Positions 1,078-35,228 of a stretch of 64,000 nucleotides of DNA are shown here, piece after piece. The DNA is taken from positions 18,538,001-18,602,000 of the forward strand of contig OX597834.1 of the NCBI GenBank assembly GCA_951406725.2, given 5' to 3'. The position numbers and the translations under genes are program-made. The first letter of the stretch is position 1; each line of letters begins with the position of its first letter. The notes below the pieces were generated by a model that was given only the letters and a program-made list of their open reading frames with translations, searched no databases and was not told the DNA's origin. Origin of the DNA: Octopus vulgaris. Its lineage: Eukaryota.

Positions 1078-1232
1078 TCATTTCTTTGGTCTGAAGACAT
1101 TGTCCTCAAACTTGCCAAGTACATTTCCGGCTGGTCTGTAATTGGCCACCACAAAGTAGCTGCCGTCTTCAGCACAGCCTCTGCCAATACCCAACTCCTT
1201 GCTGCCCTTCCACACCACTTGGGTGAAATGAC
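1078..1232 (-). CDS. GLIPR2: GLIPR2/GAPR-1-like CAP protein, last coding exon
   Basis: Acceptor ttttcag, then (G)HFTQVVWKGSKELGIGRGCAEDGSYFVVANYRPAGNVLGKFEDNVFRPKK*. Contains the CAP signatures GHFTQVVW and VANY.PAGN. Phase 1 matches the previous exon. Confidence 0.93.
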
Positions 1233-3543: not shown

Positions 3544-3621
3544 CTGTGCCAGAAGACATTCCACCTTGATCAAAATTATAGGATTTTATTTCATCGTACC
3601 AATTGTCTGTAGCATTTTGAC
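3544..3621 (-). CDS. GLIPR2: GLIPR2/GAPR-1-like CAP protein, internal coding exon (78 nt)
   Basis: tttcttcag|GTCAAAAT...GGCACAG|gtagga, encoding (G)QNATDNWYDEIKSYNFDQGGMSSGT(G). Has the CAP WYxE motif; phase 1-1. Confidence 0.92.
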
Positions 3622-3734: not shown

Positions 3735-4865
3735 GACTTATTGAAGAATCAAAAGCATTTAATCGCGATCTTGCAACGGTGTTTGTAGACTTTTCTAAAG
3801 CGTTCGACTCTGTAGATAGATACAAGATGTTTGAAATCCTTAAGCTCTATGGGATACCAGACAAAATCATTTCTGCCATCAAGGTCCTCTACACAGATAC
3901 GTCTTCAACCATCCTAACCCCTGACGGAGAAACATCATCTTTCTCAATCAAAGCCGGAATACTGCAGGGAGACACACTCGCCCCTTTTCTCTTCATCATT
4001 GTCGTTGACTATGTGCTACGTATGTCAGTTGATACCATTTCTGGCAAGGGCTTTGAAATAAAACCAAGAAGAAGTTCCAGACACCCAGCTGAATACTTGA
4101 CAGACACTGACTTTGCTGACGACATTGCTCTTATCAGTGATTCTCCAATGCCCAGTCTCTTTTACAATCTCTCGAACAAGCCTCAAATTGTGTAGGTCTT
4201 TTCCTCAATGAGGCCAAGACTGAATATATAAACGAGTGCCTGTCCAACAGTGATTGCATCATCCATACTCTCAACAATGCGCCCTTAAATATAGTTTCTG
4301 ATTACAAATATCTTGGGTCATACATATCATCATCTGGAAAAGATTTTCTAACTAGAAAGGGTATGGCCTGGTCAGCCTGTAATGACATGCATAAGATCTA
4401 GTCATCAAATCTAAGTAGAGACTTCAAACTTGAAATCTTCAAAGCCACAGTCGAACCAATTCTACTATATGGCTCAGAAACCTAGATGTTATCAAAGAAG
4501 CTTGAGAGGCGGTTGGATGGAACCTACACTCGCCTCCTTATGAGAGCTCAAAATCTCTCGTGGAAGCGTCATCCAACCAAAATGCAAATATATGGGAAAC
4601 CACCTGTGTCATCTCTTGTGAAAGGTAGAAGAGTCCAGTTTGCTGGACATTGTTGTAGAGCTGAAAACGAGGCAATTTCTACTCTTCTCCTCTGGAAGCC
4701 ATCTGTTCACAATACGAGAGGGCGCACACTCTCCTACCCTGATGTAATCTCCAGAGATACAGGTATCCAGCAACAGAACCTCTGTAATGCTATGATGGAC
4801 CGTGAAGCCTGGCGTAGCATGGTAAATTCCATTGTCTCGACCACGGTCAAAACAATGATGATGAT
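3735..4865 (+). mobile_element. 5'-truncated RTE-clade LINE (reverse transcriptase pseudogene) in a GLIPR2 intron, antisense to the gene
   Basis: FVDFSKAFDS, GILQGDTLAPFLF, DFADD, YKYLGS and LLYGSET motifs, with a frameshift and stops; (ATG)n 3' tail. Confidence 0.92.
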
Positions 4866-5834
4866 TTCTGTTTATTTTTAAATGTATCAAAAAATTGCCC
4901 TGCATCTAATGCCGTATTACAGACAAGGGACCAAATATTGTAAGTTAGGGAACTAAACAAGCATAGGTTCACTAAGTGCAATAATTCTTAATATTAAAAT
5001 AAAGAAAACGAGTCAAAATATAGTTTCTGGGCACAAGCATAACATGAAATTGCTTACAATACACTGACATTTATATGGAGAAGTCGCATCATCTCGTTAT
5101 ACCTCCTTCGTCAGTATGCAAAACCTACAGCTGATATATGACATTATTTAATGGCTGTGTTACCTTTAAGAGGCATTTAAAAAAATTATCTAAATAGAAA
5201 ACCCTCCTTGAAAGCTGGAAAGAAGCTTAAACTTTCATCCATCTGTCAATTATTTGCAATGAGTGGATGACAGCAAAACCAAAACATTGGTGCTCCACCC
5301 AGGTGGTTGATTGTGGTAACACAAAACATCACAACCAGAAGTAGGAGTTTTACATCCGGTGTGGGAATTCTCTCGACCAAAATATAAACATTTATACAGC
5401 TGAACTGAAAAAAGATAAAGATGAAATGCAACATCCCCATAGTTTTCCCCTACAAACTTATTACCACACAGGCATGGATGCATAGTAAGAAGTTTGCTTC
5501 CCAACCACATGGTTCCAAGTTCAATCCCACACCACAATGAAGAGCTGTAATGGATGAATGGAAATATTTTAGAGAGAATATGTTCATAAAACCCCTTTAT
5601 CTGGATGATTTTTCAATTTAAAAAAAAATTTTTTTATTTTATCTAGTTTCAGCTCACGAGCTGTGGCCATGCTGGGGCACCGCCATGTGAACTTATTTTA
5701 TCATACAATCTTAATCATAGACTGTTTTTATTTATCCCTAAGCTCCCTCACTCCATTGGTCAAGGGCTCTGATTCTCCTAACTTTTGGGCTTAAAAAAAA
5801 AAAGACAAGTAAAGGCAAAATAGCAAACACTGAC

Positions 5835-6153
5835 CTGTCAGAACTTCCCCATCGGATGTCCATTTGTAAGCGACATTCTCACCAACACTTTCTCCGTTCA
5901 GCTTGCAAGGACTGTGTTTTAAGGTCTTAATGGAAGCCAGATGATCGGCCCACTTCTGAGCCATCTCACACAGATCTTTAGACATCTTCAAGGTTGGCAC
6001 ACCGTGTTTGGCACGGTAACGGTTATGGGCTTTCAAAGCTGAGTCTTCGAGTTCCTTCTTTTGTTTTGCAGGTGAAACTTTGGTATCTTTTTTCGTCTTG
6101 TCCTTGGAAGGCACCGCGGAGATGGTTTCTGTGCGTGAGTGAATACAACCCAT
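5835..6153 (-). CDS. GLIPR2: GLIPR2/GAPR-1-like CAP protein, first coding exon of the 183-aa form (exon acceptor at 6249)
   Basis: MGCIHS...ALKAHNRYRAKHGVPTLK...AQKWADHLA...LKHSP...GENVAY...LTG, donor CAG|gtcagt. The three exons sum to 552 nt (183 aa plus stop). Acceptor ttattttgcag at 6250-6251. Confidence 0.92.
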
Positions 6154-7893
6154 ATCGTAAGTAGGGGTCCTACGTTCAAAAAGGGATTTCGATTCCGAAT
6201 TGGGAACTTTCTTGATTGATACAACTTGATTTCCACTTGGGATGCAAAACTGCAAAATAAATACAAATTTATTTGTAATTGGTCAGAGTTTTGATGATGG
6301 TTAAACGGAATTAAAATGGTGTTTTGGTCATTTTGTCAGAACAACACTTTTTATTTTATTTTACATCATGGTAGATTTTGCGTAAACCATCCCCAACGTT
6401 TTGTAAGTTGCTCCCTGTATTCCACCTTCAACCGTTTCCCTTGTAGCACATAAAGAAATCATCGATGTTATTGTATGTTATTGTTGTCTGAGCTCGGATT
6501 AAAAACAGAAACGGTTGACCTTCACAGCTCCTCAGAGATTTTGCGAGATCATTACAATTGATGCTTTTGAACGAAGTTGACGACTGCAAGAAACAAACAA
6601 ACAAACACACACACACACACTTTGAAAGAACAGTTCGACCCAATAAGTGAGCAATGTGAATATTAACCATCAACGTAGGTCACCAACAAAGTAGAGAAAA
6701 GAAAATCAATTTCAGCATTCTGACTTTGAAATGAAAGTCAGACGGTAAACTTTCTACATAGCAATGAGATCGATATAGAAAGCTTAGTGAGAAATATTTG
6801 TCCACATATGGTTATTGTTGGCGTTTAGCCACAGGTCATCTGTCGAGCAGATCTATTCCAACTGTCGCCATCAGTTTGTTTTGGAGATTTACATGTTTGG
6901 AAGATTTGAGGGAGATTTAGTTGCTATTTTTAGCAAAGAGAACGACCTTGTAGAGGCTCCCTAGTTGGCTTGTCTGTTCACTGAATCAAAAGATCAAAAG
7001 TAGAGGCGTAGTTAGATGTTGTGCGACACAACATCTAACTTTTGAATTTACCGACTTCCCCCGAGACCCCAATCCCGTTCAGGCTTATTTAGTATATCGA
7101 AAAGGATCGCCCTTGTAAAGCGACGCCAAGGCGGACCGCACCTAACATCCCACTGCTATCGACGCTGCTGATCAAAAGTTACGATCATCCCGTCATAACT
7201 TGTGATTGCTCTAGATCAGTCGTTTTTGTTTTAAGTAACTCTTCTGTGATGAAAATGTTATGGAAGAGTTGTAGGCACTAGCATACGTTACTGGAGTTAA
7301 ACCTGTATAGGTTTGAGGGTCTGGGTTGAAGGGGCGGCACACACTTTTGCTACGTCACTGAAGATTTGTTGAATATTTTTTTAGCAGAAAATAGAGTGAG
7401 AACTTTGAAATCGCAATATGGATTTCCAAAATCGCAGTTGCATTATAGATTCGCAAAACTGCAGTAACAGCTGTTCCAGGTACAGACTACGAGAAACAGC
7501 AGTTATGGCCTGAAGACAAAGCAATAACAGTAGTTTATCACAGCAGCAGCTGCGTTAGCGCTTTGAATAGAAAAAGCAGATGTCTAATGAGAGCAACTGG
7601 AATGCCATCAATGGTTTAAAGAGGGAATCGTGATTTAATACTGAAAAACCATTAAATTCCCCGAGAGAATTAGTTAAACCTCGTTGAGATCAACGTCCAC
7701 TTTCGTGAATGTTATAATATAAATTAGTAAAACCTATAATCAGGCTAATGAGCTTGGAAACAAATGACAAATTATATAATACTAGGTTTCGGCAGATTTC
7801 TGAAATGGACAGATGGTCACGAATGGAGGGTGTGACTGTTTTGGACGCTGGTGATCTGAAACGGTTCACTGAACAATGAGCCTATATAGGAGA

Positions 7894-10280: not shown

Positions 10281-10769
10281 TCATTAAACACTTTCTTACT
10301 CAGACTCCTCCTCTCTAGTTCTATTTGCCTTTTCAGGTGGAATTTAAAATATTCCACCAGTCGTCGTCGAGAGAATTTGTAACGAAGTTTGGGGAGCAAT
10401 TCTTAATTTGTGTCAGTGAATCGTTCTCAACATTGATAGACTTTTCCCTGTCGTTTCAGGTGTTTTTAATATGAAACCCCGCACGATTTAAGTTATAAAT
10501 CCAGTCATTCAATAGGACAGAATGTGTTAAGATGTAGCCCAATATAAAGGTGAAATATAATCCATGAAACATCAATCAACTATCTAATCCTCAACTTAAA
10601 AATAATTACATTAAGGTTCATTATCAGTTGATGGATATCTCTGCTAACACAAAATTTAAGCACTTGATTCTATTAATCCTTAATGGTACGTAAATATCAA
10701 AACACTGTTATCACAGGGATTTTGGTTCCAAAACGCAATAACAAATGAACCAGTGATAAAAACGAATCA

Positions 10770-10985
10770 TCTCCATGCATTTCGGAAATGGAACGAATGG
10801 TAGATTCATTGACGCCAAACTTGCAGCCGACAGCGTCGAAGCTGCCACCATCGCATATTTCCTCAATCACTTCTACTTATTTTTTCTGTCGAGAATACAA
10901 TCGTCTGCGTCGTTCAGTAGGATCAAACGCCTTCCTATTGTTTTGGTTCACTAGTCCCTTGACGATAGGCAAAGTTGGTCATGGT
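10770..10985 (-). pseudogene. pogo/Tigger-type transposase N-terminal HTH remnant
   Basis: Minus-strand translation VEVIEEICDGGSFDAVGCKFGVNESTIRSI resembles the CENP-B/psq HTH. Disrupted by a stop. Confidence 0.55.
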
Positions 10986-11559
10986 GGACGCAGATGCACA
11001 ACCGTGGTGCAGTCTCAAACCACGGTTGAGAAAACACAAGCGATAGTCAATACATTCTGGGTAGCTGAGCATTGGGCGATCGCTGGGGAGCGTTTTTGCT
11101 GCTCAAGTAGAATCTTCGACTAATCGCCGACCCATGTTATCCCAAATCAATCCGTAATAAGCGTGACACGGCTCACAATTGTTATCCTGGATCAGTGATG
11201 AATGAGTAAGTGATAAAGTAAGCTACATATTGTATAGAAAAAAGCTGTAATATTAGCAGTAGCAAACGTACGCCAAGGACATTGCTAGTGAAAAGTCAGT
11301 TAATTTATATACATTCTGTTCTCGTAAATTATAACTGGTAAAATCGATTGTCTTGTCTAAGTGCCTTCTTGTTGCTGTTGCATTTGGATCAATTCACAAA
11401 TCTGTGCTTACAATCCTGTTTCAATTTCCAGTTGAGGTTCTTACTTTTGACTCGTGTAATTTTTTCTCAAACAGACGGTTTTGGCACGTTTCATGCAACG
11501 TGTGTTCTTTTCAGTCTTGAAATGAAATGCAAGCCAAGTAAATTGAATACTCAATAGCG

Positions 11560-13716: not shown

Positions 13717-15389
13717 ATGTACAGTGTTAACATTCAAGAAAGAGAATACGAAAATTCAGTGATATTGCAGTTAATAACCGACTTCAACAAGAATAGAAAA
13801 CGTTGACTTACAACTAATTTTATGTTCTCTCTTTACTTGGTAGTTAAGACCTCGTCTGCCTCTCATGTGGCCATTATTACAATCTATGGACATAGACTGG
13901 ACAGTGGAAAGAGTAAAGCATGTCCACAATGCAACACTCCACAATTATTGTATGTATTGTTTATGATCTTAATGTACAGTCTGACCCTTACCCAGACGAA
14001 GATGAGCTAGAGTATCAATACGCCAAGGCCCAAATGCATTATGTTGTCTCGTGAAAGAGGGAGAGAACAAAAGGGAGGGAGAAAGAGAGGGAGAGAGATG
14101 TGTCAATGACATGCGGTAGGGGCGAACGCAATATTTATCACGTGGTTAAAAATCTGGTTAATAGTAATAGATTATTTGGTTGACCTTATTAGAAACGTCG
14201 GCTTTGATTAAAAAAGAAAAAAAAAAAAAAAAAAACGTGCGAGAACCAAAAGAATTAGATCTTCAAATATTATTGGTGCTGCTTCTTTTGACGAATTTAA
14301 TCCTCGTTTTTTCTAATTACAGTTGAAGCAGCTGATAAATCTATCTTTAAACAACTTCTCCCGTTATCAAGGTATTATGATTACAAAATCATGAAAAAAA
14401 AAAAAAGGTTGAATAAATACTTGTCTGTTTTTTGAGATTAAAAACTGGACTACTGAGGGAATTTATAATTCCATGGAACCTTTCTTGGAACATCAAAGAA
14501 CTCCACGAAAGATCACCAAATCTCATCGGCTTTGCAAAGTGATAATAGTAACAGTAGTGCTATGACGGGTGAAAGAGTTGGTGTTTAACCCTTATCAAAG
14601 CAAACCGGTCCTTTCTCTTCTTGCACACAATTGACTTTCCAATGCAATGTACTTTTGTGCATCCAAGGATCGTTTCATAAGTAAGTAATTTTGAAGAATT
14701 AGAAAAAGTGTATATTTTCTAAACAGAATAAAGAGCTGAGGTGAATGCAAAGACTTTCAAATATTCGTTAATATTTATCAAAAAAATATTGCACGTTACT
14801 TGTACTCGGTTTTATTCCAGAAGGTCGTACAGGATTGTCTCAACGGTGACTTGCACTTTTCATATATTTTCCAACTCGACTTCGTCAGAAAATAATGTTT
14901 GCATGGCCTCTTACAAAAAGTCCTTTTATAAAAATTCACTTCGTATTCTTTGCATTTATATCGCCGGACGCAAATAGGCTCAGCGTAGAGTTTAAAGCCG
15001 AAAATATGAGACAGTGTAATCCCAAGGGGGTGAAGTGCCTTCAATACCATCCCTTCTGTTGCAAGCATTCGGGTCAAGTTTCCAGTCTGAGAATAACTTT
15101 TTTCCCTTCTCTTACCCCAACTTTCGACGCCCATTTTTGTGGCGTTCGTTTTTTTTTTTTCTCTTTTAAAAATTAATTGGAAGCAAAAAAAAAACTGAAA
15201 TGACTCATACAATACAGAATGAATAATAAAACAAAATAATGTAAGTCAATTTTGTTTGTGTCGTATGAGTCATTTGAGTGAGTAGTGTCTAAATTAAAAA
15301 CAAAACGAAGAGCATAAGCACTGATGTGTGTGTGAGTGTGTAATATTCGCAATTAAACGAATTCATACTAAAAAAGGCGAAACACTTAC

Positions 15390-15396
15390 CTTACAT
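15390..15396 (-). other. Candidate 7-nt microexon ATGTAAG of the GLIPR2-like gene
   Basis: cttttctattatgcag|ATGTAAG|gtaagtg: good acceptor and consensus donor. Confidence 0.45.
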
Positions 15397-15665
15397 CTGC
15401 ATAATAGAAAAGAAACGGTAACACACATACACACAACTAAAACATTACGAAAATAATGCTTCTATTTTCACCGAAATGTGTCTAATCTGTCCTACATTTG
15501 ATAGACGAGTTCATAATCAATAAAAAAAAGTTCTGTCAGAGACGGCTTAACAGGAATGTAACGAGTGTTTGTTTCCACAACCCCCACCACACACACACTA
15601 CTGGAGTTGATAGTATACCAGACTCACCACCAAAAGAACGGTGGTTCGTGTTCAAGTCGACTTAC

Positions 15666-15745
15666 CTTCAAATGGTTTCGTCAACAAATTTCCAATTCCT
15701 CAATCGTACACGAACAACAATTCATTGCTGTCAGCACGACAGCTG
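15666..15745 (-). other. Candidate non-coding 5' exon of the GLIPR2-like gene
   Basis: Consensus donor GAAG|gtaagtc at 15666/15665. The 5' boundary is uncertain. Confidence 0.35.
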
Positions 15746-16776
15746 TTAGTTGGGTAAATCTTACGTTTTAAGCTAGGTATTGGCGAATTGCCAATACCTA
15801 AAATCTTATGGGGTTGCACCTGGGATCACAGGTGTGATATTTGATTCCACAAATTTATACATATGAAACGGGTGTAAAATAACTATTTTGGTCTTAAAAT
15901 TTGTTTCTACAACACACACACAGCTACAGGAGTCACGAACTACAGCGCATTAGATTTCGTGTCTCAGTGGATCTAGATTTGATAACTCAGATTTCTACCT
16001 TCAAATATTGTTGTTTTGTCCCCTCATATCATACCTTAGCGTATTAACGATATCTGAGAGGTGAAATGATATCTACTGAGAACTGAAACCATATCATCAC
16101 ATTGGAAGTGATTATGCTGACAAAATTTCTACATTTTCGAAAAATCTAAACAAAACTTTATTTGTGCAGAATGGTGCCAAATTTTATCAACAAATCTGTC
16201 ATGTTTATCGTCTGCACGACAATCCCCACCCCCTGAACATGCAATTTAATTGAAATATTCAGTTTATCTTCAAAACTTTCGTAAACACCCTTGCAAGTAT
16301 TCACTGTCATCTATAATATACATGTTCGGTTACTGACTTTCAAATATAAATTATTTCCCTAAACAAACGTAGACTGCCTATCATACAGACAATGTTTACA
16401 ATAAAATATTTAAAACCTATTTTCAGCTTTGCTGCAAAAATAATTTGACTGAAATTACTCCTCCAAATATTTTAGGCAAACCACAAGGCGAGAGCTTACT
16501 GGTTCAGTTTTCCAACTGAAGAGTCAATAAACTCGTGAAACATGGAGAGATATTTTGTCTCTGTGCTCTTCCGAAAACTTTTAGAGTGTACTTTCAACAT
16601 CGTGGAATATCACAAATATTGACCCAAGATTTCTCATATTGAGATACTTGGTAAACACGCTGCAATGTTAGGTTTTATTTCATATAATTTGCACCCTAGA
16701 TGGAGGTGGGGTAGATTGGTCCAGCCCGCGCAACGCTTTTGAGGATGACATTTTTGGGCTTGCAGTACAAACAAAC

Positions 16777-16871
16777 CTATCTGGGGGCACGAAGTCCTGG
16801 AGGAGGCGAGCAGCAAACTCAAGGGCTACCGCGGGCGGAAAACACCTAAGCTTTTCGACTGTGTGCACCAT
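16777..16871 (-). CDS. Candidate alternative first coding exon (MVHTVEKLRCFPPAVALEFAARLLQDFVPPD)
   Basis: GC-rich unique island with an ATG, 95 nt open, donor AG|gtttgt. Phase 2 is compatible with the 7-nt microexon and the 6249 acceptor. Confidence 0.4.
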
Positions 16872-17402
16872 GTATTTTCGTTGTATTTCACGGAAGATAC
16901 CGAGAGCAAACGAGCTCCGGATCGACTAATTCTCTATTACTACAAGCATTATAAATTATAGACATAGGGGCAATAATCGTGAGTGGTAATATCGACAGAC
17001 GATCAAGAAACCCACACAACGAGCATTTTCACTGCCTCACACTGGCTTTGGCTAAAATTCCTGAATGTCAAAACTTTAATGGTTCGTGAGAATAAAAAAA
17101 TAATAATAATCTAAGAAACAACAACAACATGCCGTTACTTCAGTTTGTTCCAGATCATGACTTTTGATGAAAGAAAATTATTAATGGCCTGTAAATCCTT
17201 TCTGACTATGTTTGACTCAACCATGACCACAGCACAAACCTTTCCCACTAAACTGAAACATAGATCTACATTTATGTACACATTTGTAGCTGTAAGGAAA
17301 GCAAGAACTAAGGCTTTAAACTCTACGCTGAGGAGGAAGAGGACATGAGTTCTAACCGCTTTAACGAAAGGGTGAATGTGTTTCATCACTGGTCTAACTT
17401 AC

Positions 17403-17411
17403 CTTGACAGG
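17403..17411 (-). other. Candidate 9-nt microexon CCTGTCAAG (or 3' end of a first exon)
   Basis: Long pyrimidine tract ...cgttttttttattag|CCTGTCAAG|gtaagtt. Confidence 0.4.
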
Positions 17412-17793
17412 CTAATAAAAAAAACGAGGCGTGTAAAGCGTAAAAAGGAGAATAGGTAGATTTAAGTGGGTCGTATTGTTTCAGTTTGTTGGGTAACGGA
17501 GTGTTTATGCCAAATACTTTCAAAGAAAAACTAAGGGCTAAGAAAAAAAATGAACATTGAAATATAAAAGTTTCCTTGTTTTATTTTTAGGTAAGAGATC
17601 ATCTTGAGGGTCACTCGTGTCAAGTATTGAAAATGACAAGGCGAGACATAGATAAGTAATATAAACAACTACGGTTGATTGTTAAACAAACGTTCAGAGC
17701 AGCAGTCAAATGTCACATTTCTAGTTAACAATTGAAACAAGGAACTTTATCTTAAGCTGTGGCAAGAGATTCTCTATTTATGATATTTTTACT

Positions 17794-26766: not shown

Positions 26767-27057
26767 TTATTGATTTTGTTCGTTATCGATTGAGTTTGTT
26801 TTCTCCAAAGTTCCTTCGTGGAATCGACGGGTCATCTCGCATAAATCCTCCTGCATTTTCTGCATCTGCTGTTCCAGGAGAAACAGGTCAGCGCTCGCAG
26901 AATCGTTCGAGTGCGTTGGCGGCGGTGGCATCTTACTGAACGTATCGTCCACAAAACTACCCATTTTGTCGGGTCCCCACATTGGAATGGCATCCGGATT
27001 GATCGGAGACGTTTGAAAGGGCTTAGGGTCGGCAGCAGAAAGTGTTGTAGTATTGTC
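26767..27057 (-). CDS. Terminal coding exon of an unidentified gene
   Basis: Acceptor catgttttag, then 96 codons DNTTTLSAADPKPFQTSPINPDAIPMWGPDK...DLFLLEQQMQKMQEDLCEMTRRFHEG...NQ*. Coding-like, GC-richer island with a C-terminal coiled-coil-like segment. Confidence 0.65.
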   Translation of the reverse strand, partial: DNTTTLSAADPKPFQTSPINPDAIPMWGPDKMGSFVDDTFSKMPPPPTHSNDSASADLFLLEQQMQKMQEDLCEMTRRFHEGTLEKTNSIDNEQNQ

Positions 27058-34699: not shown

Positions 34700-35228
34700 C
34701 AGGGGTTGGACAAAATAAAGGAAACACCTAACATCATAATTTTGAAATATCTATAAAACCGTCAAAAGCTTGTTTATTTTTATGGTCCATGATTTATTAT
34801 TAGTGTTGCTTAATATGTTTTGCTAAAATTGCTTTTTCTTTTCAGATATCATCAGAAAAAGTTAATTAAAATTCATTAAAATGACAGATCTATTAGACTT
34901 TCAAAGACGTCAAATTATTGGTGCACGTATGGCAGGCGCTAGTGTAACGGAAACAGCCGAAATGTTTGGTGTATCAAGAAGTACTGTTTCGAATGTAATG
35001 ACAGCCTTTGAGAAAAAGGAAAAAAAAACCTCCTCGTCGAGACAAAACTCTGGGAGAAAACCAAAACTTTCAGACAGGGACCGTCGGACTCTTACGCGAA
35101 TTGTTAGAAAGGATCACAAAAGCACAGCTCCCCAAATTACTGCAGAGCGTAATGACCACCTCGAGAACCCTGTTTCCACAAAAACTGTTCGCCAGGAGCT
35201 GCACAAAACCGATTTTCAATGGGGATGA
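34700..35228 (+). mobile_element. Tc1-like transposon left end with N-terminal transposase (paired HTH) fragment
   Basis: TIR CAGGGGTTGGACAAAATAA. ORF 34881-35228 MTDLLDFQRRQIIGARMAGASVTETAEMFGVSRSTVS...GRKPKLSDRDRRTL...VSTKTVRQELHK is truncated before the DDE domain. Confidence 0.9.

Follow-up and report, generated by a model that had tools for sequence, protein, structure and literature searches.

A GAPR-1-like gene with a 72-kb intron

The window analysed here, that is, the whole stretch of 64,000 nucleotides from Octopus vulgaris, carries on its minus strand the CAP-domain exons of a gene that, by sequence resemblance, is GAPR-1-like. The parts of this gene referred to below are the following.

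G000:C21:18616325-18616372, beyond the 64-kb window: annotated 48-nt exon upstream of 6249, ending in phase 0
26767..27057, minus strand: probable alternative last exon, phase 0, 96 codons followed by a stop, conserved in Argonauta
5835..6249, minus strand: internal coding exon with a 32-codon linker, a Met-Gly-Cys start at 6153 and the first part of the CAP domain
3544..3621, minus strand: CAP-domain exon
1078..1232, minus strand: final CAP-domain coding exon, which contains the stop

The CAP exon at 6249 lies inside a longer Octopus gene, as one of its internal exons. It matches at 100% a 377-aa Octopus vulgaris protein named "PRY1 isoform X2" (NCBI), and the protein cluster of the host gene has 14 members (O. 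vulgaris, O. sinensis, O. bimaculoides and Logan), two of which run into introns; all 12 spliced members join the upstream segment straight to 6249. The 48-nt exon sits 72 kb upstream of the 6249 exon, and the candidate microexon discussed below falls in that 72-kb intron. Two coding first exons are located further upstream of the 48-nt exon, and the first exon of isoform P0017 is coding and in phase 0. A single CAP domain was found in the host protein by Pfam search, and its best match among solved structures was human GAPR-1/GLIPR2 (PDB 1smb, E 8e-45), in agreement with the earlier note on this DNA, which had placed a GAPR-1-like gene downstream of the candidate. CAP proteins obtained from a homolog search at 75-240 aa were rejected as the host gene, since they were paralog-level or distant, and a search for longer proteins gave the true gene.

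A short form of the host protein starting at Met-Gly-Cys is plausible, given that Met-Gly-Cys starts are present in many homologs and that four Logan proteins of a cuttlefish-type relative (80 contigs; 49% identity for the named cluster member) begin there, although such Logan ORF calls may reflect incomplete 5' ends. No spliced Octopus protein beginning at Met-Gly-Cys was found among the 14 cluster members. Human GAPR-1 is described as anchored by an N-myristoyl group in the part of PMC13690689 consulted. Like human GAPR-1, which has a single CAP domain, the octopus short form would begin with Met-Gly, the N-myristoyl motif by which GAPR-1 is held at membranes; in the annotated octopus forms, on the other hand, the Met-Gly would be buried behind 85-206 additional N-terminal residues.

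Splice signals of the seven-nucleotide candidate

Within the long intron, the following candidate sites were recognized.

15390..15396, minus strand: candidate 7-nt microexon ATGTAAG, from reading of the sequence
15397..15435, minus strand: its candidate 3' splice site, with a 38-nt AG-free zone, 13 pyrimidines in 17 positions and TGCAG
15384..15389, minus strand: its candidate 5' splice site, GTAAGT after AAG
15666..15760, minus strand: likely a short 5' exon, closed by a perfect donor at 15666, with a 14-codon uORF from 15725
16777..16871, minus strand: weaker donor TAG/GTTTGT with an ORF
17403..17411, minus strand: second candidate microexon of 9 nt, frame-preserving (P-V-K), or the end of a first exon

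The sequence features of the 7 nt are confirmed as the earlier note had described them, i.e., splice sites enclosing exactly ATGTAAG at 15396-15390 on the minus strand. A T-rich tract ending in TGCAG lies directly 5' of ATGTAAG and the acceptor at 15396 is among the top 3% of 3763 YAG sites; a pyrimidine tract with AG on one side and GT on the other flank these bases in the manner of a microexon. The AUG is followed immediately by a stop codon, which makes the 7 nt a start-stop. A second GTAAG core is located 5 nt upstream of the 15390 donor, inside the candidate microexon, and is the source of the TAA; since the core of the candidate consists of AT followed by GTAAG twice (tandem GTAAG GTAAG), the stop falls within the repeated donor motif. 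Selection for the start-stop content is not supported, and this content may be a by-product of the repeated donor core. The probability of the four free bases being ATGT is 0.006 by chance, a figure that applies to bases picked in hindsight. The candidate region is single copy in the genome (G000).

Not all signals of an acceptor are present at the site. A YTRAY branch point was not found within 90 nt upstream of 15396, nor was UCUC or CUCU in the same 90 nt; YTRAY was present at three of the four annotated acceptors tested in the host gene, against 45 of 92 in the background. The only UGC near the candidate acceptor sits at -5, inside TGCAG. As TGCAG is more common at the annotated acceptors of the host gene (2/6) than among strong background YAG sites (5.4%), it fits a genuine acceptor and points to no special regulator.

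For this site the earlier note had pointed to the promotion of neural microexons by SRRM3/4-type factors through UGC motifs near the 3' splice site. The regulator itself is likely present: an exon at G000:C25:37317492-37317626 (L018) matches SRRM_C (eMIC, PF15230) with 32.6 bits (cut-off 27) and is likely that of the octopus Srrm234 microexon regulator, as judged from its sequence. The eMIC-dependent exons of the fly, in the part of the study consulted, have weak 3' sites with UGC close by, and they combine long AG-free zones with UCUC tracts and CUAAY branch points (10.1101/2021.02.24.432780 = PMC8797185). In human, as far as the source was available, the UGC is placed between the branch point and the AG and is no absolute requirement (10.1101/2024.09.17.613571). 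The acceptor at 15396 does not show this set of hallmarks, i.e., the CUAAY branch point, the UCUC tract and the weak 3' site. TGC as an SRRM signal was set aside as non-specific, being part of an ordinary TGCAG. Compared with the eMIC/SRRM3/4 neural microexons described in the parts of the sources consulted, the candidate is similar in its very short length, strong 5' site, AG-free zone and occurrence in a genome with SRRM_C, but differs in that its 3' site is not weak, its sole UGC is in TGCAG, UCUC and CUAAY are missing and its length does not preserve the frame.

The counts of similar patterns gave different answers at the two scales. Locally, by two criteria chosen after the candidate site had been seen, a strict microexon pattern had two matches in 164 kb on two strands, namely 15396-15390 and 17411-17403, both in sense and both in the host-gene intron, against an expected mean of 0.17 (12 Markov simulations), and the donor 9-mer AAGGTAAGT had four occurrences, three within 2 kb at the candidate region and one at an annotated donor. 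The three perfect donors (15390, 15666 and 17403) are all on the sense strand (P ~7e-5 given one site), and a comparable acceptor 3-30 nt upstream accompanies two of these three clustered donors and 11 of 471 (2.3%) GTRAG sites. A loose microexon pattern had 23 matches, compared with 16 in the simulations. Genome-wide, the 7-nt pattern had 19 matches, five of them from one repeat family, against 17 in the reversed control; the exact start-stop core YAG-ATGTAAG-GTRAG had 17 against 28; and a 9-nt pattern, which the local 9-nt candidate at 17411-17403 does not fit, had 9 against 20. The excess over chance is thus local only; across the genome there is no enrichment, and nothing in these counts points to start-stop microexons as a class. 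On present evidence the candidate is one of about twenty chance-level matches in a 2.8-Gb genome.

These counts bear directly on the possibility that splicing makes no use of the site, or that it is cryptic, with acceptor and donor matching by chance near a real donor at 15666. The lack of genome-wide enrichment favours it, as do the missing branch-point consensus, the absence of the 7 nt from every annotated isoform and the tandem GTAAG GTAAG, which yields TAA without selection. Against it stand three perfect sense-strand donors within 2 kb, an acceptor of such rank and a second microexon-like site 2 kb away, and we regard it as somewhat unlikely. The donor cluster probably marks an internal 5'-exon region of the GAPR-1-like gene. 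CpG profile and core-promoter motifs revealed no clear promoter, and no CpG peak was seen at 15-17 kb (o/e 0.69-0.87, median 0.845). Recursive splicing, as treated in the part of PMC8605326 consulted, was judged unlikely because GT is missing directly after the candidate AG.

Coding consequences, upstream partners and contig evidence

The effect of the 7 nt would depend on the exon spliced in front of them. The Met-Gly-Cys ATG lies 96 nt into the 6249 exon, and 97 nt would separate it from the end of the UAA in the spliced-in 7 nt. If joined to the donor at 15666 or 17403, the 7 nt would be a true start-stop with A at -3, so that an AUG-UAA about 100 nt upstream of the GAPR-1 ATG, as first proposed, is borne out by computation. 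This uORF reading does not extend to the annotated coding exon: since the 48-nt exon ends in phase 0, the 7 nt behind it would be an in-frame Met-stop, and the long protein would stop short of the CAP domain. Three junctions would then follow the stop, in keeping with a poison exon under the >50 nt rule. Nonsense-mediated decay (NMD) is expected for a stop with three downstream junctions.

If the 16777 donor precedes them, the 7 nt would encode R-C-K in an open frame, in line with the original proposal, and the ORF at 16777 shares the frame of the CAP exon only when the 7 nt are included. However, neither R-C-K nor any microexon was present in the 12 spliced isoforms, among which a stop-carrying form would yield no such protein, and the 16777 exon found no contig among four runs and no database isoform in its support. 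A truncated form of 95-305 aa was likewise not found with the N-terminal 174 aa as query, for which none of 62 candidates scored. The 17403 donor, taken earlier as that of a non-coding exon, is perfect but may itself close the 9-nt in-frame microexon at 17403..17411, which has a 103-nt AG-free zone and would place P-V-K between the phase-0 exon and the CAP exon; P-V-K was absent from the 12 spliced database isoforms.

Contigs of four of 23 runs were compared over 15300-17780, all 23 being assembled contigs and none being on record as RNA. Runs X15 and X19 had no contig on 15300-17780 and X7 had only a 32-nt low-identity piece. The remaining feature is as follows.

15458..15695: 238-nt contig of run X4 at depth 4, unspliced, crossing the 15666 donor into the 269-nt intron that would precede the candidate microexon

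No contig from the four runs spans the 7-nt exon and neither joints nor loose ends were recorded, which does not amount to absence, as contigs drop rare forms and 7 nt are too short to align alone. The X4 contig begins exactly 30 nt (k-1) upstream of the 15666 donor. A k=31 assembly graph would branch at that point if splicing from the donor also took place and trimming removed the short 5' tip. The start of the contig is therefore a hint that the 15666 donor is used, with the limit that the same picture would arise from a variant at 15696 or from an edge of coverage and that X4 is only guessed to be RNA. The contig as a whole is compatible with a microexon intermediate whose downstream intron is the first to be removed, with a longer exon, with pre-mRNA or with DNA. 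According to the part of PMC10250204 consulted, splicing begins with the downstream intron in 58% of human SRRM4 microexons. At 15608 the X4 contig (depth 4) has T>C on the plus strand, i.e., A>G on the transcribed strand, which could be an allele, an error or A-to-I editing.

The same contig enters into another explanation, by which the 15390 donor closes a longer alternative first exon or serves the 15666 exon as a distal donor. A 13-codon ORF from ATG 15428 would then end in phase 0 and give the protein a short Cys-rich hydrophobic N-terminus, and the AUG-UAA would be out of frame and incidental. The ORF is open from 15428 into the CAP exon, just as the annotated first exon of P0017 is coding and in phase 0; the X4 contig is unspliced from 15695 to 15458; and the missing branch point upstream of 15396 also agrees with a longer exon. 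Against it, 17% of positions are expected to have an in-frame ATG such as 15428 by chance, hydrophobic residues result from the translation of pyrimidine tracts and GT repeats regardless, and the X4 contig ends 68 nt short of the 15390 donor. Moreover, a start near 15760 would bring five other uATGs ending before or at the microexon, and the N-terminus from 15428 was in no database protein. We consider the longer exon somewhat unlikely as well, to nearly the same degree as an unused site.

The reading preferred here, to be taken as tentative and short of evenly probable, is that the 7 nt are a rarely included, unannotated candidate microexon, the inclusion of which would reduce the amount of CAP protein made. 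Transcripts with a start site just upstream of 15666 would encode the short form from Met-Gly-Cys, for which myristoylation is predicted, as in human GAPR-1. When spliced from 15666 to the 7 nt and on to 6249, they would contain an AUG-UAA that has A at -3 and lies 97 nt ahead of Met-Gly-Cys, and translation would be damped; this damping would add to that of the 14-codon uORF that may already lie in the 15666 leader. In long transcripts, the 7 nt would add a Met-stop after the upstream domain and act as a poison exon, with NMD as the likely outcome. A selected translation switch, which ends the long GAPR-1 isoform and gates the Met-Gly-Cys start, with a soluble long and a lipid-anchored short form and possibly neuronal through Srrm234-eMIC, appears improbable. 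The original interpretation of the site as a whole is partly supported, and its switch function stays putative.

A side observation concerns the 15725-15666 ORF on the minus strand (14 codons), which is Cys-rich and in frame with the CAP exon if the microexon is skipped. It is parted from the CAP frame by a single TGA followed by C, and the TGA is unchanged in the X4 contig. Readthrough or A-to-I recoding at that TGA would yield a new N-terminus, which is speculative.

Comparison with known systems and neighbouring exons

A neural microexon in Bak1 is reportedly of the non-triplet or poison type, with a role in NMD. The 28-nt microexon of C. elegans tnt-3, as described in the part of PMC13247117 consulted, resembles the candidate in being non-3n and in ending or shifting the frame of its host ORF. 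The candidate differs from such non-triplet or poison microexons in having a conserved ATG of lipid-anchor type 97 nt after the new stop. Like the start-stop elements of 5'-UTRs, as far as these are covered in the consulted parts of PMC13338717 and 10.1101/2021.07.26.453809, it would place an AUG-stop upstream of a main ORF, and it shares their A at -3 if spliced behind an exon ending in AAG. Start-stops repress downstream translation in human reporters and an isoform-specific start-stop is described in SMAD7/Mad (PMC13338717, in the part consulted). In contrast to those elements, the one considered here lies wholly within a putative 7-nt cassette exon and would be a uORF only behind a non-coding 5' exon.

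A cassette exon consisting wholly of a start-stop was not found in print, and each component is already a known kind. In a literature search with most subscription journals and supplements outside its scope, no work combined microexon, start-stop and uORF, none named the identifiers of the host gene, and few dealt with microexons together with octopus or cephalopods. The candidate exon could already be listed in the VastDB-type octopus exon tables on which 10.64898/2026.09.05.749416, a source consulted in part, is based. If real, the site would offer a testable microexon in a cephalopod, and if also regulated, it would unite microexon splicing and start-stop translation control in one 7-base unit.

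Firmer results are the donor cluster, which is unannotated, and an additional conserved exon of the host gene. The latter, at 27057-26767, shares 64% identity with a portion of the Argonauta model P0010, and none of the Octopus cluster members has it; from this resemblance it is probably an unannotated alternative last exon, leading to a form without the CAP domain. Pfam gave no match for the 27057 exon.

Some minor features were also seen in the window. An ATG ORF of 112 codons at 15134-14796 on the minus strand lies just downstream of the candidate and had no Pfam match. At 6583-6517 (minus strand), 330 nt ahead of the CAP exon, a GT repeat is followed by a strong TGCAG acceptor; the segment, which is in no database isoform, has an open frame, and its donor is weak. 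The stretches at 3737-4881 (plus), 34866-35228 (plus) and 10749-11123 are presumably broken pieces of mobile elements, resembling LINE reverse transcriptase, Tc1/mariner transposase and helix-turn-helix transposase.
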